Source: a bacterium
GTDB lineage: Bacteria > Bacteroidota > Ignavibacteria > Kapaibacteriales > UBA2268
Assembly: GCA_030431515.1 (NCBI GenBank)
Contig: JAUIIX010000008.1
Span: forward strand, 13,071-77,070
Direction of reading: 5' to 3'
DNA length: 64,000 nt
Shown in pieces: positions 28,878 to 62,615 of this stretch (positions are counted from its first letter, which is position 1; the number at the start of each line of letters is the position of its first letter). A program made the translations under genes and the position numbers. The notes under the pieces are model-generated. The model saw only the letters and a program-made list of their open reading frames with translations. It did not search any database and was not told the DNA's origin.

Positions 28878-29831
28878 TTAATTTTTTAATAGAAGTATAT
28901 CACAATGTTGACAATGAAAACCAATGTCGTATGATTCAGATGGAATTTCACCATATTCAGCAGGAGTAATATATTCAGAAATAATATGAAAATCACCAAC
29001 AAAAGAACCACAATTTCTGCATGTATTAGCTAAATATTTACATTCCATAGTACTACTATAATGCACTTTTAACAAAACACCTTTAGATCTTGCAAATTCA
29101 ATTTCTTGATTTGAAAAATATTTTGGAGAGGAATTCATATAACTTTTGAAAGTTGATGCAATTTTCATTGTATTTTTACATCTCCAACATTCACCATCAA
29201 TTATTTTCATTTGAGATTTGAGTTTATAATTTCCACAAGTTTTGCATTTTGGATTAAAACAAATATCGACCAAGTCAGGATTAGAAATCTTTTCTTCAAG
29301 TAACTCAATATCTTTATGAGAAGTTAAATTAATTTGTATTAGAATTATATTATTTTCTTTATAATAGTTTAAAACTTCCTGTTCTGGTTTGTGAGTTACA
29401 ACCACTTCAAAAACAGCAATGGTTTTATTATCATTATCTAATAATGTTAAATCTGGTTGACAAACTTTTAAATTATGTTCAAGCTTTACAGAGGTTACTT
29501 TTTTAAGTAAATTACCTTTATGATTATCATTACAATATTTGCAGTGCCATGAAATATTAATTGGCAATTTTAAGTTTATTTTTCCATCAATTTCTTTAAA
29601 TAATAAATTTTTAAAGGAAAAATGTAATGCTGATTCTGGAGTACAATTTGGAGTTAAATTATTGTGTGCAAAATGAGGTCTTTTAGAACCTTTTCCTGTA
29701 TTGCCACTTTTACGAAGTATTAACTTTTCTTTACAAATTGGACAATAAAAATCATTGCCTTTTTCAGCGTCTATTGCTTGAATAAATTGTCCATCTTTTT
29801 TTGTGGCAACAGTGTATAGTAGTTTTGTCAT
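28878..29831 (-). CDS. CoiA-like competence/nuclease family protein with extra C-terminal zinc-ribbon-rich region
   Basis: N-terminal CoiA signature (FYCPICKEKLILRKSG...RPHFAH). PD-(D/E)xK-like core (CQPDLTLL...IAVFEVVVTHKPEQE). At least 5 additional CxxC pairs C-terminally. Confidence 0.5.
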   Translation of the reverse strand: MTKLLYTVATKKDGQFIQAIDAEKGNDFYCPICKEKLILRKSGNTGKGSKRPHFAHNNLTPNCTPESALHFSFKNLLFKEIDGKINLKLPINISWHCKYCNDNHKGNLLKKVTSVKLEHNLKVCQPDLTLLDNDNKTIAVFEVVVTHKPEQEVLNYYKENNIILIQINLTSHKDIELLEEKISNPDLVDICFNPKCKTCGNYKLKSQMKIIDGECWRCKNTMKIASTFKSYMNSSPKYFSNQEIEFARSKGVLLKVHYSSTMECKYLANTCRNCGSFVGDFHIISEYITPAEYGEIPSESYDIGFHCQHCDILLLKN

Positions 29832-29855
29832 ATTATACCAATATTTAAGTTTTTC

Positions 29856-30179
29856 TCATACCCTCTTATAAAATAATTTACCAACTCTTTGAATATGATC
29901 TAAAAGTTGTTTGTTCTTGATTTTTTCAAGGATTTGTAAATCAACTAAAAAAGGAATGTCACTATTATCAATTTGATATTTAATTTTACCTAAACTTTGC
30001 CTATCTAATTTACTATTCTTTATAACTAAATCAATGTCACTTCTCGAATGATGAGTATCTTTAGCACGTGAACCATACAATATAACTTCATTAACTTCTT
30101 CAAAATCATTAAAAATGCTTGCTAAAGTATTGATAATATTCTCATTTAATGTTAAATTATTATTCATATTAAGATTCAT
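29856..30179 (-). CDS. minimal nucleotidyltransferase (MNT, HI0073-type) antitoxin
   Basis: Pol-beta NTase motif ILYGSRAKDTHHSRSDIDLVI. Overlaps HEPN gene by 11 bp. Confidence 0.8.
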   Translation of the reverse strand: MNLNMNNNLTLNENIINTLASIFNDFEEVNEVILYGSRAKDTHHSRSDIDLVIKNSKLDRQSLGKIKYQIDNSDIPFLVDLQILEKIKNKQLLDHIQRVGKLFYKRV

Positions 30180-30573
30180 TTAAAGAGTAATACAAAGCCA
30201 ATAAAAGAGGAGTATACTTTTTTTGAATATCAGGAACAATCTCCATAATTACATCCGAATCATAAGTATGGCTTAATAAGTTGCGGTCATTTATCATTTC
30301 AAGCCATAATTCAATATCATCAACATACTTATTTTTAAATGCTTCTTTTAAAACCATTTTAGGAGATATTTTATTCAAAATCAGTCCATCAAACTCCATT
30401 TTATCTTTAAGAGTTTTCCAAGCCAATTCAAGAGTAAATTCAAAACGCTGAATAACACCTTCCTTTTCCAAAAAAGAAAGTCTTTCTAAATCCAAATCAG
30501 GAATTTCTTCTAAAAGAAAGATTGCTTTTTGAAAATTAGACAATTGTTGTTTCCATCTAATATCTTGTTTCAT
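30169..30573 (-). CDS. HEPN-domain protein (HI0074-type nucleotidyltransferase substrate-binding protein), toxin of HEPN/MNT pair
   Basis: RW...FQKA...QRFEFTLELAWKTLKD ... Rx4-6H motif (DRNLLSHTY). Confidence 0.8.
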   Translation of the reverse strand: MKQDIRWKQQLSNFQKAIFLLEEIPDLDLERLSFLEKEGVIQRFEFTLELAWKTLKDKMEFDGLILNKISPKMVLKEAFKNKYVDDIELWLEMINDRNLLSHTYDSDVIMEIVPDIQKKYTPLLLALYYSLNES

Positions 30574-30798
30574 CTATATTTATAAAATTTAATTATTTAG
30601 ACGAAACAAAATAAAATATATTATTTAGTAACTTAATCTCATATTCAATGCTATATTCATTTATTTTCAACATAATTTTAAAATAAAATTAGTTTTAATT
30701 CCTTTATATATTAAATAAGAATATTAATTTTGAATTTATAAATAAAATTAATTTATATTAAAGTCCAATCTTAAAAAAAAGAAAAAACACCGTTTTTA

Positions 30799-30933
30799 CT
30801 GCAAAAACTGCAAAAATCACGTAAAGTAATAAAATACAATATATTACAAAAGTTAAATATGGTAAAAAAACTTAATTTTATAAAATTGTGGCTGCAAAAT
30901 ACTGCAATTTTCTGCAAAAACTGCAAAAATCAC
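30799..30933. repeat. array of CTGCAA(A/T)n boxes including two direct copies of the 22-mer CTGCAAAAACTGCAAAAATCAC
   Basis: 22-mer at 30799-30820 and 30912-30933. Additional CTGCAAAATA/CTGCAATTTT units at 30890-30911. Confidence 0.6.
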
Positions 30934-30936
30934 TAG

Positions 30937-31360
30937 GTCATTCTGAACGAGGGTGAATAATCCAATTCTTAAAATTAAAAATATTTAAAATAAAAACTAT
31001 TAACTATTTGAATAAACTAAAATATATCTTATTTTCGCAGTATGAATAAAGCTTATGTAAATATTCTTGCGTCATATAAACACGGCACCTTATATGTTTG
31101 AGTAAGTTCTAATCTTATGAAAAGAAATTATGAGTATAAGACTGTTGCAATTGAAGGATTTACCAAAAAATATAAAATAGATCGCTTGGTTTGTTATGAA
31201 GAAGGTAATGATATCAAAGAGGCAATTGAAAGAGAGAAAGTTTTAAAAGGAAAAATCAGAAGTTATAAAATTGAGTTGATTGAAGCTCAAAATCCGGAAT
31301 GGAATGATTTAAGTAAAGATTGGTTTGAAGGAATGGATTCATCGCTTCGCTCTGAATGAC
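30937..31360 (+). mobile_element. GIY-YIG mini-element copy 1 (diverged left repeat, conserved leader, inactivated GIY-YIG gene, right 26-nt repeat)
   Basis: 30937-31050 is ~90% identical to 32142-32255. Right repeat GGATTCATCGCTTCGCTCTGAATGAC at 31335-31360. Left repeat GTCATTCTGAACGAGGGTGAATAATCC is a diverged copy of the inverted motif. Confidence 0.5.
31042..31359 (+). pseudogene. GIY-YIG nuclease family gene disrupted by in-frame TGA at 31099-31101
   Basis: MNKAYVNILASYKHGTLYV* aligns to the intact paralog MNKVYVYILASYKHGTLYVGVSS (GGA>TGA). Downstream frame continues (track ORF 31117..31359). Conserved EH of the R..EH motif is EY here. Confidence 0.7.
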
Positions 31361-31403
31361 AGGGAATGGATTCTTCGCTTCGCTCTGAATGACGGAGAGA
31401 AGA

Positions 31404-31536
31404 CGGCGTAAGGAGTTAAGAAGAGGAAATTTAACTTTAAATTTTTTAGGAATCTTTGAATTTTAGAAAAAGTATAAGGGAAATTCATGAATTTCCCCTA
31501 CAAATACAGTGGATTCATCGCTTCGCTCTGAATGAC
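31404..31536 (+). repeat. ~134-bp conserved intergenic segment, copy 1, containing a perfect 20-bp palindrome and a terminal 26-nt repeat
   Basis: Near-identical to 33161-33294. Palindrome GGGAAATTCATGAATTTCCC at 31478-31497. 26-nt motif at 31511-31536. Confidence 0.7.
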
Positions 31537-31646
31537 GAAGAGTAGAAGACGGAAGAGGTATTCAAGACGGCGTGATGAGTTAAGAAGAGGGTTTTTCTTA
31601 TATTTGTGAAATAGTTTTTGAAAATTATTAGAAAGGTGGGGATAAA

Positions 31647-32027
31647 ATGAAATCAGTTAGTTATTTTTTAATAATGGTTTTTCTTTTTTTATTTAAGGTT
31701 TTAGCTAATGATAAGCCTGAAGGGATTCCTATAGATGGTGAATATATTTATCAACTTAGATTTGCAGAATGGAATATGGCTTATCATGGTCAAGATGTCA
31801 AAGTTATAATAAAAGAAGATTCTATTAAAATCTTTTTATATAAAGGTGAACTCACAGGATTAAAGAAAGGCGATTTAATTGAAGAAGGATTAATAAGATT
31901 TCATAATAAAACAAGTAATTGGGTAATAGTTAAAGATGAAAATGAATTAGAAGTAGATGATGTTGGAGGTTGTAGTGATGGTCCAAGTATTATTGATTTC
32001 AAAAATAAAATTTATATAACTTGTTGA
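31647..32027 (+). CDS. small secreted hypothetical protein (cargo ORF 1)
   Basis: Signal peptide MKSVSYFLIMVFLFLFKVLA. Preceded by a leader conserved with that of 32669..33136. Confidence 0.45.
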   Translation: MKSVSYFLIMVFLFLFKVLANDKPEGIPIDGEYIYQLRFAEWNMAYHGQDVKVIIKEDSIKIFLYKGELTGLKKGDLIEEGLIRFHNKTSNWVIVKDENELEVDDVGGCSDGPSIIDFKNKIYITC

Positions 32028-32141
32028 AAAGTCGTAAATACTATTCGAGACAGCATAGAAAGTATTCGAGACGGTGGAAGGTGTTAAGAAGAGGCGGATG
32101 TAGTATTCGATACGGCGATAATAGTTTAGAAGAGAGTTTCC

Positions 32142-32564
32142 GTCATTCAGAGCGAAGCGAAGAATCCAATTCTTAAATTTAAAAATATTTAAAATAAAAA
32201 CTATTAACTATTTGAATAAACTAAAATATATTTTATTTTTGCGGTATGAATAAAGTTTATGTATATATTCTTGCGTCATATAAACACGGCACCTTATATG
32301 TTGGAGTAAGTTCTAATCTTATAAAGAGAATTTATGAGCATAAGACTGGAGCGATTGAAGGATTTACCAAAAAATATAAAATAGATCGCTTAGTTTATTA
32401 TGAAGAAGGTAATGGTATCAAAGAGGCAATTGAAAGAGAGAAGTTTATTAAAGGTAAATCAAGAAAATATAAAATTAGTTTGATTGAAGAAAATAATCCT
32501 AATTGGAATGACTTGAGTAGTACTTGGTTTGAAGAAATGGATTCATCGCTTCGCTCTGAATGAC
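32142..32564 (+). mobile_element. GIY-YIG mini-element copy 2: 26-bp terminal inverted repeats flanking an intact GIY-YIG gene
   Basis: Left GTCATTCAGAGCGAAGCGAAGAATCC (32142-32167). Right GGATTCATCGCTTCGCTCTGAATGAC (32539-32564), which is the reverse complement at 25/26. Element length 423 bp. Confidence 0.55.
32246..32563 (+). CDS. GIY-YIG nuclease family protein (small COG2827/URI-domain type)
   Basis: VYVYILASYKHGTLYVGVSSNLIKRIYEHKTG (GIY..YVG..R..EH). Last 7 codons and TGA stop are encoded by the right terminal repeat. Confidence 0.75.
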   Translation: MNKVYVYILASYKHGTLYVGVSSNLIKRIYEHKTGAIEGFTKKYKIDRLVYYEEGNGIKEAIEREKFIKGKSRKYKISLIEENNPNWNDLSSTWFEEMDSSLRSE

Positions 32565-32668
32565 GAAGAGTAGAAGACGGAAGAGGTATGCGAGATTGTG
32601 TAAGGAGTTAAGAAGAGGGTTTTGATTATATTTGTAAAATAGTTTTTGATAATTATTATAAAGGTGAG

Positions 32669-33136
32669 ATGATGAAAGGGATAGTTTTAGTTGTTTTAGT
32701 GATGGTAGTTGGTTTAATATCAACAACAAGAATTAATTGTGAAATGGTTGATGTTTCAAAAACTTTTGATTACGTTTATGAAAATTGTATAAAAGAAGGA
32801 AAAGATGAGTCTATATGTTATGAACTATTTATTGAAGCATGGAAAGAACATTTAGATAAATTAATATTAGAATATAAAACTAAATTAGAAGAAAACAATT
32901 ATAATGAAGAAAGTAAGTTATTTGCAATATATCAAGAGAATTGGCAAAATTATTATGAATCTCTAAAAAACTTTTATCAAGTGCTTACTTTAAACATTAG
33001 TAATGATGAAATTGATAAAGAAGAAATAAAAAAAAGAATTATTTCCTTTTTATCTTATAGATGTTTTGAAATAGAAAAATGTATAAGCTGTCTTGATTAT
33101 GCAATTGAAAGAGATAAAAAAAAAGATAAGGACTAA
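32669..33136 (+). CDS. small secreted Cys-containing hypothetical protein (cargo ORF 2, possibly DUF1311/LprI-like)
   Basis: Signal peptide. Conserved Cys/Trp spacing (CIKEGKDESICYELFIEAWKEH...YQENWQNYYESL...CFEIEKCISC). Confidence 0.4.
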   Translation: MMKGIVLVVLVMVVGLISTTRINCEMVDVSKTFDYVYENCIKEGKDESICYELFIEAWKEHLDKLILEYKTKLEENNYNEESKLFAIYQENWQNYYESLKNFYQVLTLNISNDEIDKEEIKKRIISFLSYRCFEIEKCISCLDYAIERDKKKDKD

Positions 33137-33160
33137 TGAGGCGGTATGAAGGGTATTTGA

Positions 33161-33294
33161 AACGGCGTAAGGAGTTAAGAAGAGGAAATTTAACTTTAAA
33201 TTTTTAGGAATCTTTGAATTTTAGAAAAAGTATAAGGGAAATTCATGAATTTCCCCTACAAATACAGTGGATTCATCGCTTCGCTCTGAATGAC
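33161..33294 (+). repeat. ~134-bp conserved intergenic segment, copy 2 (palindrome at 33235-33254, 26-nt motif at 33269-33294), abutting the uvrA 3' end
   Basis: Near-identical to 31404-31536. Confidence 0.7.
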
Positions 33295-51969: not shown

Positions 51970-53148
51970 ATGTTAAAAAAAGAATTAGATATAACAAATA
52001 TAGAACTAACTGAATATATAGCAAATGTAAATATACATAGACACTCTAAATTAAGCAAAAAAGAATTTTTAAATAGGTTAGAATATGTAAAAGCAATTAG
52101 AGTACGTGATGAATCTATTCATTATGATTTAAAAACTTTAGAAGATTTAAAAATTTTAAAATATTTACATGATTTAATTAGAAACGGTAATTTTAAAGGT
52201 TATATATTTGAAAAGTATATACAAAAATATAAAAGACAAATATTTATATTTGGAATACCAAGTAATATTTATTGGTGGTTAAGAAATACAGAATTTGAAA
52301 TAATTCAAAAGCAGTTATATAATTGGCAAGTTGCTTCTTTCTTTATAGATGATGAATTAAAAATGTTAGTAGAAGATGAAATTCATCCATTTATTCTTAA
52401 AGATATTATTAAAATTAAAAAAGAATATTATGATAAATATAGAATAGATAGTATTGATGATTATGATGAATTTGATTTTAAAAAAATCTATAACAACATT
52501 TCAATTGAATTAACAGGTGCTCTACCTCCAAAATTTTTAGATTATCCATTTTTGAAATATGGAATCAATAGTAAAGATTGGAGAATAAAAATTGGTCCTA
52601 CTTGTAATTTTACCATTGAAATTGGCTATTTTACTGAATTTGATTGGATATCTAAATTCGAAAAAAATCAAAATAAATTTGAAAAATATTTAGGAAAATC
52701 ATTTAATAATATTGATTTTGAGGATTATTTAACCCAACTTGAATTTGATTCGTTAGAAAGGTCTGATTCTAAACTAGAATTTTGGGAAATCTGGAAATCT
52801 ACCTTTGAAAACTATGATATATCAAATTCTTTTATTTATGAGAAATTATCGATTGATAATGAATGTGGGAATATTTATTTAATTAAAGAAGAACTTAATA
52901 AATCTATAAAAATAGGATGGACTAAAAGTAATGTTGAGAAAAGATTATTAGCACTTCAGACAGGAAATTCACAAAATTTAATAATTGTAGGATATTTTAG
53001 AACTTCAAGCATACGAACGGAAAAAGCATTGCATCAAAAATTTAAAAACAAAAGAATAAGTAATGGAAGTGAATGGTTTAATCTAAATGAAAATGATATT
53101 AATAATATTCTAGATTCTAAATGGAGAATTGAAAATAATATCTTTTAA
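51970..53148 (+). CDS. T5orf172 (GIY-YIG-like/MUG113) domain protein with unknown ~300-aa N-terminal domain
   Basis: C-terminal IYLIKEELNKSIKIGWTKSNVEKRLLALQTGNSQNL...LHQKFKNKRISNGSEWFNL matches T5orf172 signature. Confidence 0.5.
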   Translation: MLKKELDITNIELTEYIANVNIHRHSKLSKKEFLNRLEYVKAIRVRDESIHYDLKTLEDLKILKYLHDLIRNGNFKGYIFEKYIQKYKRQIFIFGIPSNIYWWLRNTEFEIIQKQLYNWQVASFFIDDELKMLVEDEIHPFILKDIIKIKKEYYDKYRIDSIDDYDEFDFKKIYNNISIELTGALPPKFLDYPFLKYGINSKDWRIKIGPTCNFTIEIGYFTEFDWISKFEKNQNKFEKYLGKSFNNIDFEDYLTQLEFDSLERSDSKLEFWEIWKSTFENYDISNSFIYEKLSIDNECGNIYLIKEELNKSIKIGWTKSNVEKRLLALQTGNSQNLIIVGYFRTSSIRTEKALHQKFKNKRISNGSEWFNLNENDINNILDSKWRIENNIF

Positions 53149-60083: not shown

Positions 60084-60251
60084 TTCCGCAGTCTTCTCCC
60101 TATCATTCAGAGCGAAGCGAAGAACCCACTGCTTGCTTTCCCTGTCATTCTGAACGAAGTGAAGAATTTCTTAAGCATTAACTACTTCTATCATAGTACT
60201 TTACAAGCCCAAAACCCACTGGAAGAATATCTCCGCCGTCTCAAATGGTAT
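60084..60251 (+). repeat. ~170-bp composite repeat (MITE-like), copy A
   Basis: ~85% identical to 60964-61151. Contains two direct 26-nt motif units (60102-60127; 60144-60167). Bounded by TTCCGCNGTCT-like direct repeats. Confidence 0.65.
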
Positions 60252-60367: not shown

Positions 60368-60832
60368 GTGATAATTTTGAGTAACCCAAAGAATATTCTT
60401 TCTTTTTATCTTACAATTATAATTGGTAAATATATGGCATTGAGTGACTTCTCGATTTTTTATGATAATGAAAATAAAGTTGTAATAGCTAAAATAATAA
60501 GTAAATATGCTAACTTAAATGATCCGACTTTCTATATAGATTCTACTGAATTAATTCGCAAACTTTTAATTGAAAATAATTGTTTTAAGTTATTTGCGGA
60601 CTACTCATTGATTGGCATTCAAATGAGTTATGAAATGGAGTATTACTATGCGAAAAACATTAATAAGGTTTTTGACTATCCAGATGGGACTATAAGCTCC
60701 ATTTATGAAGGTGAATTTTACTCTAAAAAAAAATGGGCTCTCATTAAGAATATTTTTAAAGAAGATGGAGTTACAAACATAGAGTTTTTTGGTGACTACG
60801 ACGAAGCAATGGCTTGGCTAAAAAGTAAGTAA
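60368..60832 (+). CDS. hypothetical protein (154 aa) flanked by direct MITE-like repeats
   Basis: ORF only. No recognisable motifs. Confidence 0.35.
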   Translation: MIILSNPKNILSFYLTIIIGKYMALSDFSIFYDNENKVVIAKIISKYANLNDPTFYIDSTELIRKLLIENNCFKLFADYSLIGIQMSYEMEYYYAKNINKVFDYPDGTISSIYEGEFYSKKKWALIKNIFKEDGVTNIEFFGDYDEAMAWLKSK

Positions 60833-60963: not shown

Positions 60964-61151
60964 TTCCGCCGTCTTCTCTCTGTCATTCAGAGCGAAGCGA
61001 AGAATCCACTGACTGCTTTCTCTGTCATTCTTAAATATGAGACCGTCATTCTGAACGAAGTGAAGTATCTCCCAAGCATTTTATACGTCTATCATAGCAC
61101 TTTACAAGCCCAAAACCCTCTCGAAGAACATTTCCGCAGTATCGAATGGTA
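60964..61151 (+). repeat. ~190-bp composite repeat (MITE-like), copy B, with 21-bp internal insertion
   Basis: Aligned to 60084-60251. Motif units at 60982-61007 and 61045-61068, plus a partial extra unit at 61024-61030. Confidence 0.65.
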
Positions 61152-61243: not shown

Positions 61244-62269
61244 TTAATCTTTCTCATTTGGATATAATTTTTTTCTATTAATACCCTTTTTTTCTAAAAT
61301 AAGTTTTATATCAGAACTTAAATCGTTATGAATATCAAAACACCATATCTTATCTTTTATTTGATCATAATAAGGACTTCCATCTATATTTATTATATTT
61401 TTATTTATAGATTCATTAAATACATTTTCAAGAGGTAATATTGGATCATTATTGAATATAAACAAACCTTTTTGACATAAAATATTTTGATTTGTATTAA
61501 CACTTATGTTCTCTTCAACTAAATATTTCCAATCTGATAAGAGTAAAAGCTTATGATTTTTTAAAATATTATAATTATAGATATTAATTATATTTTCAAC
61601 ATAATTAAAATCATTTTTAGGATATTTATTTCTTAAGTTATAGACTGAATACATTACTAATTGTTTAATAAATATAAAATTTGGTAAATTATCTAAATAC
61701 TTATTAGTATCAATTAAATATAAAGAAAAATAATTATCAATATCTGAATGAATATTACTATTAATTTCTAAAGTACTAAAATATAATGCAATAAAATAAT
61801 TAATTGACCAATCTAAAAGTGGTGTGAAAAATTCATTATGTTGTAAAATACTTAATAAACCAATATCAGTTAATCTTTCATTTGTATATTCTGTGTTTAA
61901 TATTTCGTTTAATTTATTTTTATTTGTTCTATAATTTTCAATATTTTCATTTATAAATTTATCAAATATGCTTGCGTTTTCAGCATTTGAATTATATTTT
62001 AAATAAATTTCTTCTTGTATCCACTTTCTCTGAATAGTATTGAATAATTTATATTTTGCTTTATTTACACCTCGAAAAATAATATTTGGATTATAATAAT
62101 TAATGTTTTTCTTATTCCTTTCTGTTTGAATTGAATCTTTATTTCCATAATAAATATCATCTATTCTTACAAACATTTTTAATAAATCTTCTTTCGTGTC
62201 TATTATATTGTGATAAAAAAAATTAGATTTTTCTTCAAAATTATTATATTCTTCTAATTCACTCATCAC
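61244..62269 (-). CDS. FRG-domain protein
   Basis: IFRGVNKAKYKL ... LLSILQHNEFFTPLLDWSINYFIALYFS matches the FRG-domain core (F-R-G; QHyG.pT.LLDWT...AlyFA). Confidence 0.5.
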   Translation of the reverse strand: MMSELEEYNNFEEKSNFFYHNIIDTKEDLLKMFVRIDDIYYGNKDSIQTERNKKNINYYNPNIIFRGVNKAKYKLFNTIQRKWIQEEIYLKYNSNAENASIFDKFINENIENYRTNKNKLNEILNTEYTNERLTDIGLLSILQHNEFFTPLLDWSINYFIALYFSTLEINSNIHSDIDNYFSLYLIDTNKYLDNLPNFIFIKQLVMYSVYNLRNKYPKNDFNYVENIINIYNYNILKNHKLLLLSDWKYLVEENISVNTNQNILCQKGLFIFNNDPILPLENVFNESINKNIINIDGSPYYDQIKDKIWCFDIHNDLSSDIKLILEKKGINRKKLYPNEKD

Positions 62270-62466: not shown

Positions 62467-62525
62467 TTATGGATTCCACGCTTCGCTCTGAATGATGTTG
62501 GGTATTTCTGGGAGATTTAGTATTA

Positions 62526-62559
62526 ACCTTCCGAAGGTTCTGAATCTTCGGAAGGTTTC
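62526..62559. repeat. perfect 12-bp-stem hairpin AACCTTCCGAAG-gttctgaat-CTTCGGAAGGTT
   Basis: Read directly. Sits between two 26-nt motif copies, downstream of coaD. Confidence 0.8.
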
Positions 62560-62615
62560 GAAAGTCGTTAAGTATGTTTTTTTCGCTTCGCTCTGAATGA
62601 AAGGGATTTTTTTTC

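Follow-up and report, generated by a model that had tools for sequence, protein, structure and literature searches.

A GIY-YIG nuclease gene between inverted hairpin repeats in an uncultured Kapaibacteriales bacterium: a probable Ssn-family system with a distinct repeat type

Introduction

Ssn proteins form a family of single-domain GIY-YIG nucleases (CDD cd10448) that was described by Chenal et al. (2025, Nat Commun 16:2388; PMC11893778). SsnA of Neisseria meningitidis, a protein of 94 aa, has single-stranded CGTCATTCCCGCGMAVGCGGGAATCYRG as its binding site and cleaves directly upstream of it, and ssn genes are arranged as NTS-ssnA-NTS, between copies of the NTS repeat (PMC11893778). Here we describe a unit of comparable layout in 64,000 nucleotides of DNA from an uncultured bacterium of the Kapaibacteriales (GenBank assembly GCA_030431515.1, contig JAUIIX010000008.1, positions 13,071 to 77,070); this whole stretch is called the window, and all coordinates given without further label refer to it. 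The unit consists of a small GIY-YIG nuclease gene enclosed by inverted copies of a 26-nt repeat, and it is probably a member of the Ssn family.

Homology to SsnA was set by Chenal et al. at E < 1e-10; among Ssn homologs a repeat was found nearby in 71% and on both sides in 42% (PMC11893778). Four members of the family, from three Neisseria species and Wolbachia, have been tested and were alike in behaviour: they cut only the repeat-bearing strand of single-stranded DNA and do not cut double-stranded DNA (PMC11893778). In Neisseria, the Ssn system lowers transformation by NTS-bearing DNA (PMC11893778). The authors noted that NTS-ssnA-NTS looks like an insertion sequence (IS) and resembles RAYT/REP systems; they proposed domestication and also raised the hypothesis of mobility (PMC11893778).

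The repeats themselves resemble the CGTC-tagged REPs of Di Nocera et al. (2013), in which a CGTC or TGTC tag is combined with a stem that starts with AT and with a CCA tail (PMC3733652). This class includes dRS3 of Neisseria and RPE-4/6 of Rickettsia, and Di Nocera et al. concluded that it was without a dedicated enzyme (PMC3733652). The hairpin repeats of the Ssn system, called NTS or Ssn-related motifs (SRM), belong to this class, and Chenal et al. supplied its enzyme (PMC11893778).

An earlier reading of the window, made from its letters only (the sequence-only reading), took the unit for a candidate mobile element of a class that could not be placed, perhaps homing-like or perhaps a REP/RAYT-like system with a GIY-YIG enzyme. 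The last of these suggestions has aged well, since it is essentially the published Ssn/SRM system (PMC11893778), and a test across phyla agrees with it. The same paper had already described the architecture and its likeness to IS, RAYT and REP elements; the unit adds another member to the Ssn/SRM kind, one whose repeat variant and protein subgroup fall outside the published search pattern, and is not a new class of mobile element.

An Intact and a Decayed Unit

The intact unit opens with a left repeat (32141-32167, plus strand), which carries the tag C-GTC, the body ATTCAGAGCGAAGCGAAGAAT and then C-C(A), and is a variant of the SRM that is here called GA-type. The unit closes with a right repeat on the minus strand (32539-32565), and both tags point outward. 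The inverted pair of 26-mers that had been reported at 32142-32167 and 32539-32564 is present and agrees at 25 of 26 positions when one is reverse-complemented, but the arms are longer than was thought: the inverted repeat extends over 37 nt (32141-32177 and 32529-32565) with 92% complementarity. The extension comes from the first 11 nt of an AT-rich leader (32168-32245, plus strand) that runs from the left repeat to the start codon.

Between the arms, the gene strand holds a single open reading frame (ORF) of at least 40 aa, the ssn-like gene (32246-32563, plus strand), in agreement with the sequence-only reading. Read on the coding strand, the right repeat indeed encodes the last seven codons, DSSLRSE, and the TGA stop; the stop codon is provided by the reverse complement of the tag (TGAC). 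The right arm is also overlapped by an ORF of 76 aa that runs on the other strand (32499-32729).

A second unit (30937-31360) has the same layout, with 92% identity over 300 nt, and the expectation that its left repeat had diverged and its gene was disrupted proved right. The left repeat (30937-30963, plus strand; GTCATTCTGAACGAGGGTGAATAATCC) contains an indel, and the gene (31042-31359, plus strand; 81% amino acid identity to the intact copy) is a pseudogene: codon 20, the position of an invariant glycine, is an in-frame TGA, and the replacements Y7N and H32Y likewise affect residues that do not vary in the family. Its right repeat lies at 31335-31360 on the minus strand. A third copy of the unit is found in another gene context in the same population (contig L001), and the AT-rich leader is kept in all three copies.

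Two further observations concern the decayed unit. Its left flank is unrelated to the left flanks of the other two copies, and a direct repeat, TTT(A/T)CTGCAAAAACTGCAAAAATCAC, occurs just upstream of it at 30795-30820 and 30908-30933. The possibility that TGA is read as glycine (genetic code 25), raised by the TGA of this copy against GGA in the intact one, was rejected because uvrA and other long ORFs are intact under code 11 and because the same copy has also lost the invariant Tyr7 and His32.

Copies of the repeat are far more frequent in the window than in randomised sequence. With up to three mismatches, the 26-mer GTCATTCAGAGCGAAGCGAAGAATCC occurs nine times, as against none in 100 dinucleotide-preserving shuffles, and a looser 25-nt consensus occurs 12 times, again as against none in 100 shuffles. 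All 12 copies are intergenic or lie at the 3' end of a nuclease gene, in a window of which 90.5% is ORF. Solo copies had been described as scattered; instead, all copies fall into two intergenic clusters, at 30.9-33.3 kb and 60.1-62.6 kb, which within the window surround small secreted proteins and an FRG-domain gene. A scan of the whole window against Rfam at the gathering threshold matched no family.

The Nuclease

The intact protein has 105 aa, and its sole Pfam domain is GIY-YIG (PF01541, E = 1e-12); the NCBIfam scan returned nothing above the cut-off. The residues that are invariant in the family alignment (Y7, Y18, R28, H32, E65, and N84) are all present, and Y7, Y18, and E65 are spaced like Y6, Y17, and E64 of SsnA from N. 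meningitidis. A PDB sequence search with the protein gave no match. The AlphaFold2 (AF2) model has the GIY-YIG fold (pLDDT 87), and the solved structures closest to it are those of the UPF0213 protein BH0048, Slx1, and the N-terminal domain of UvrC. Residues 101-105, the tail encoded by the repeat, are predicted to be disordered.

Does this protein belong with Ssn? It has 2556 homologs, and many that are only 55-65% identical and come from different phyla end in the same ..DSSLRSE. In several homologs, the upstream repeat is read through at the N-terminus, for example as CHSERSEES or VILNEVKDP. A betaproteobacterial protein that is flanked by near-consensus NTS is 62% identical to the window protein (E = 1e-36), and a Rhodospirillaceae protein, both of whose arms are the exact NTS consensus, is 52% identical (E = 2e-35). 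A search seeded with the betaproteobacterial relative gave no Neisseria entry among the 120 matches listed. By these sequence comparisons, the link of the window protein to the Ssn family is indirect, yet we consider it strong.

Repeats and Genes Across the Family

The association of repeat and gene extends well beyond the window. For 80 loci from species-representative genomes of many phyla, 82 genes were assessed for flanking inverted repeats: the 250 nt upstream of each gene were aligned to its 3' end and the next 150 nt downstream, taken as reverse complement. As controls, 385 comparisons of identical geometry were made at positions shifted along the loci, and their 95th percentile served as the threshold. 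Of the 82 genes, 62 carried flanking inverted repeats above the threshold. The GTC tag pointed outward in 47 of the flanked genes, and in 14 of the 62 the right arm ended at the stop codon, as it does in the window unit. The arms have the form (C/T)GTC-AT..stem-loop-stem..AT-CCA; left and right arms vary together from genome to genome, and the flanks of some homologs are identical to the Neisseria NTS consensus.

Two types of repeat can be distinguished, and each has its own proteins. Within 400 nt of 85 homolog genes, canonical repeats that fit the published pattern were found at 39 and GA-type repeats at 11, with zero overlap. Glycine is present at position 70 in all 35 proteins that are flanked by GA-type repeats or end in DSSLRSE; the canonical group has Lys, Arg, or Ala there. 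Position 75 is Trp in 37 of 39 canonical proteins and mostly Lys, Arg, or Tyr in GA-type proteins, where Trp is not among the three commonest residues. Ser91 and Trp94 likewise mark the GA-type group. Because the proteins associated with GA-type repeats share these signature residues, enzyme subgroup and repeat type go together. The GA-type repeat of the window is a distinct form, paired with a distinct subgroup of the nuclease.

The exact 26-mer was found in at least 120 metagenome contigs with GC contents of 26-68%, mostly as solo copies. Only three of 134 exact copies were in arm position beside a homolog, which fits a picture of many solo copies and few genes per genome. The contigs with the identical 26-mer (L085-L204) come from soil, peat, sediment, gut, and fermentation, and this conservation is unusually strict for an intergenic repeat across genomes so different. 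Pairs of Ssn-like proteins that are 75-77% identical also occur across phyla (L009/L042, L043/L054, and L032/L050), namely in Planctomycetales and Anaerolineae, in Cloacimonadota and Latescibacterota, and in Kerfeldbacteria and a deltaproteobacterium.

Structure of the GA-Type Repeat

Covariation supports an interrupted hairpin for the GA-type repeat. Between an outer stem of 5 bp and an inner stem of 2 bp lies a tandem G·A/A·G step, and the inner stem is closed by a GNA triloop; the core reads GCGAAGC, which is known as an extra-stable DNA mini-hairpin (PMC13037366). Among 37 distinct GA-type copies collected from all loci, 93.4% of cells pair, and in six of the seven pairs both partners vary. 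Not one of 500 shuffles reached these values, and slid controls were at most 55% paired. The tandem GA..GA step was demanded by the pattern used to collect the copies, and its invariance is therefore not an independent result. Of two subtypes of the repeat in the window, one has G-C and the other A-T at a pair of the inner stem. The GTC tag and the C that follows the hairpin are found in the best window copies; the flanks of the window repeats read CCGTC, TCGTC, or CTGTC ... GAATCCA.

Proposed Function

We consider, with a probability of about 0.8, that the unit is an Ssn-family system: a single-domain GIY-YIG gene flanked by inverted cognate repeats, with the same repeat spread through intergenic DNA. 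The sequence data show the architecture of the unit, the family-wide association, the structure of the repeat as seen in covariation, and the correspondence between protein subgroup and repeat type. The biochemical activity, cut positions, and biological role of the window system, as set out in the next paragraph, are presumed by analogy with the published enzymes.

In single-stranded DNA, whether incoming transforming DNA or DNA undergoing replication or repair, the repeat would fold into its hairpin. The nuclease would then bind the hairpin and the C that follows and, with the GTC tag as its guide, would cut that strand at a distance of a few nucleotides on the 5' side of the tag. Neither double-stranded DNA nor RNA nor the complementary strand would be attacked. 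Because both tags point outward, the predicted cuts lie just outside the unit, near 32136-32140 for the top strand and near 32566-32570 for the bottom strand. The likely outcome is that repeat-bearing single-stranded DNA would be cut, so that recombination at repeat-bounded cassettes would be modulated and repeats possibly spread.

Several points weigh against an assignment to the Ssn family or against parts of the function proposed here. The putative membership of cd10448 goes through homologs flanked by canonical NTS and not through a direct comparison with SsnA. The published SRM search pattern has no match in the window, and it does match canonical NTS; the pattern, it should be said, is a search device and not a definition of the family. 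By nearest-neighbour DNA energies, the 26-mer reaches -1.4 kcal/mol (z = +0.4), which predicts no stable hairpin, and canonical NTS reaches -9 kcal/mol (z = -5.5) by the same energies. The case for the GA-type hairpin consequently rests on covariation and on non-canonical G·A pairs. The nuclease activity of the GA-type subgroup is assumed from the four family members that have been tested, and the role in natural transformation seen in Neisseria may not transfer to the organism of the window.

If the unit is read as an Ssn-family system, it places an Ssn-type nuclease and its repeat in an uncultured low-GC bacterium. Part of the family would use a GCGAAGC-based interrupted-hairpin repeat that the published pattern misses, together with a recognisable protein subgroup. 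For the use of Ssn enzymes as tools for single-stranded DNA, a new and very strongly conserved pair of enzyme and site becomes available as a candidate. The system also bears on the question of mobile versus domesticated elements in genome biology: the gene is at a fixed locus in related species, yet some of the proteins are near-identical across phyla.

Is the Unit Mobile?

The unit could be an autonomous IS-like transposon, with the GIY-YIG protein as transposase and the solo repeats as non-autonomous derivatives. Its terminal inverted repeats of 37 nt exceed the core that is shared with solo copies. The population contains at least three diverged copies, two in the window and L001 elsewhere, and homology among them begins no more than 3 nt from the left tag; on the right side, however, homology continues into a neighbouring repeat of another kind (type B), and the boundary is not sharp. 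Two paralogs that are 86% identical (L025 and L046) lie at different loci, on different contigs of one metagenome-assembled genome (MAG), and the cross-phylum protein pairs of 75-77% identity suggest horizontal transfer. Against this, the gene is at a syntenic locus in all three congeneric species pairs, and the direct signs of movement that the sequence-only reading had proposed as checks did not appear. No target-site duplication was found at the ends of the three unit copies, and no empty-site allele was retrieved; exact look-ups of the window proteins ORF126, ORF155, and UvrA and of the intact nuclease returned no record, and a contig of the same population (L004) ends inside the repeats. 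The window ORFs scanned against Pfam included no transposase or recombinase domain, and the window has no Y1 transposase. The Ssn enzymes that have been tested cut only the repeat-bearing strand of single-stranded DNA, so one strand of the unit would receive a cut at only one of its ends. GIY-YIG nucleases act by hydrolysis and are not known to carry out strand transfer. An IS-like transposon of this sort is unlikely, and on the evidence for and against mobility, transposition of the unit is treated here as an open minority hypothesis. A broader version, in which the repeat-ssn-repeat unit is or recently was self-mobilising, seems doubtful. The single-strand nuclease would act with host repair or replication and without a transposase, the solo repeats would be non-autonomous offspring, and the GA-type repeat, which is identical in organisms with GC contents of 26-68%, would mark a lineage spreading horizontally between phyla. 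Were this true, it would amount to an insertion-sequence-like class that uses a GIY-YIG nuclease instead of a transposase.

Could the gene instead be that of a free-standing GIY-YIG homing endonuclease, one that has the repeat as its target and was inserted by homing at such a site? The fold is well known from homing endonucleases, and the gene always adjoins the sequence that its family recognises. Homing would, however, leave two halves of one target in direct orientation, and the gene lies between two complete, inverted repeats. The protein is single-domain and has no separate DNA-binding domain, the gene is intergenic, and the tested relatives, which cut single-stranded DNA only, spare double-stranded DNA; the homing-like alternative is therefore very improbable. 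Just as improbable is the view that these are ordinary terminator-like or REP intergenic repeats with no functional tie to the gene, and that local duplication has produced the bracketing incidentally. In line with this view, the majority of copies are solo and downstream of genes, and the region is a mosaic of several repeat modules. The view does not sit well with the 62 of 82 homologous genes that are bracketed across phyla, nor with the co-variation of repeat type and protein subgroup. In intrinsic-terminator scoring of the region, moreover, the repeats did not score as terminators, and the two terminator-like hairpins that were found belong to a different module. The Ssn-family reading, in which gene and repeats belong together, remains the favoured one.

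Other Repeat Copies, Companion Modules and Neighbouring Genes

The first cluster contains three solo repeats, all on the minus strand, in addition to the two units. One is an exact 26-mer (31368-31393), head-to-tail with the right repeat of the pseudogene unit that precedes it (31335-31360). After another (31511-31536) comes the type B module that also follows the intact unit's right repeat (129 nt, 91% identical), and the third (33269-33294) is directly downstream of the uvrA stop codon.

The second cluster is built of doublets. At 60102-60168 (plus strand), two repeat subtypes stand head-to-tail, AGAGCGAAGCGAAG and then TGAACGAAGTGAAG, and a second head-to-tail doublet of the same two subtypes lies at 60982-61069 (plus strand). 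Together with two diverged repeats of three and four mismatches (62471-62601, minus strand), this second doublet brackets the FRG-domain gene (61244-62269) with tags outward, just as the nuclease gene is bracketed. Between the two plus-strand doublets lies an ORF of 154 aa that has no match in Pfam (60368-60832).

The companion repeat, type B (..GTAT.CGAGA..G.GTAAGGAGTTAAGAAGAGG; 32571-32618, plus strand), abuts the repeats on the tag side. Other copies in the window are at 31543-31590, 32047-32094, 32088-32135, and 33138-33185, and beyond the window there are copies on L001 at 620-670 and 1150-1195. Type B (..GTATTCGAGACGGCGTAAGGAGTTAAGAAGAGG..) is found on both sides of the intact unit in direct orientation, and the tag side on which it abuts the Ssn-type repeats is also the predicted side of nuclease cutting. 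A longer module joins type B to an AT-rich stretch that resembles a promoter and to the signal peptide of a lipoprotein (MKGIVLVVLVMVVGL..); it occurs at 32578-32721, at 31550-31644, and on metagenome contig L085 at 400-543. Copies of this lipoprotein-signal module, 86-90% identical, stand in front of three different protein bodies, those of two unrelated small secreted proteins in the window and another on L085, and it looks like a cassette-like 5' module. A further module, type C, of about 85 nt is present at 31428-31510 and 33186-33268 in copies that are 95% identical. It contains a 26-nt palindrome (TAAGGGAAATTCATGAATTTCCCCTA) that scores as an intrinsic terminator on the minus strand, and each copy ends at a solo repeat.

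The window is ordinary chromosome of about 28% GC with the standard code. Its genes include nrdJ, uvrA, gatB, aconitase, recQ, and those for proteins with type-IX-secretion sorting tails. Over 3 kb it shares 74% identity with a MAG of the Kapaibacteriales, which points to a host that is probably related to the Kapabacteria. The first cluster lies in an accessory island between nrdJ and uvrA that also holds a CoiA-like gene, a nucleotidyltransferase/substrate-binding protein pair, and two small secreted proteins. Within the island, 28878-30573 comprises the CoiA-N-like protein of 317 aa and the overlapping gene pair, a nucleotidyltransferase of 107 aa and a nucleotidyltransferase substrate-binding protein of 134 aa, in the layout of an MNT/HEPN-type toxin-antitoxin system. 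Elsewhere in the window, a 392-aa ORF (51970-53148) that has no relation to the repeats carries a C-terminal T5orf172/MUG113 domain, which is GIY-YIG-related. A RecQ-type helicase gene converges on this ORF, with an overlap of 4 nt between the two 3' ends.

Comparison with Known Systems

The closest described relative is the Ssn/SRM system. In both, a single-domain GIY-YIG protein of about 95-105 aa is encoded between inverted, tagged hairpin repeats, and many solo intergenic copies of the repeat cluster around accessory genes. The GTC tag, the AT..AT ends of the stem, and the following C are conserved in the window repeat. The body of the repeat differs, however, in being a hairpin interrupted by tandem G·A/A·G, with a 3-nt loop, which places it outside the SRM pattern. 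The nuclease belongs to a subgroup with Gly70, a residue other than Trp at position 75, Ser91, and Trp94, and the host seems to be an uncultured, low-GC relative of the Kapabacteria.

Like the CGTC-tagged REPs, the window repeats carry a CGTC or TGTC tag and a CCA tail, have AT at both ends of the stem, and are intergenic. In contrast to the continuous stem of 8-9 bp and the loop of 4-5 nt in that class, the window repeat has an interrupted stem (5 bp + 2 bp) and a loop of 3 nt; the window doublets are head-to-tail, whereas the REP dimers are head-to-head.

With RAYT/REP (REPIN) systems and IS200/IS605 elements, the unit shares a nuclease gene bracketed by inverted copies of a genome-populating hairpin repeat, the presumed recognition of single-stranded DNA hairpins, and a position that is conserved between related species. 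The enzyme is a GIY-YIG and not an HUH/Y1 nuclease, a covalent tyrosine intermediate is not expected, and the tag is CGTC where that of RAYT/REP is GTAG. UPF0213/YhbQ proteins (PDB 1ZG2 and 1YWL), Slx1, and the nuclease domain of UvrC have the same GIY-YIG fold and are the best structural matches among solved proteins, but their identity to the window protein is only 16-27%, and they lack the C-terminal helix region (K-x-W/K-x-R-x-x-K..LIE..NP.W.DL) that characterises its family.

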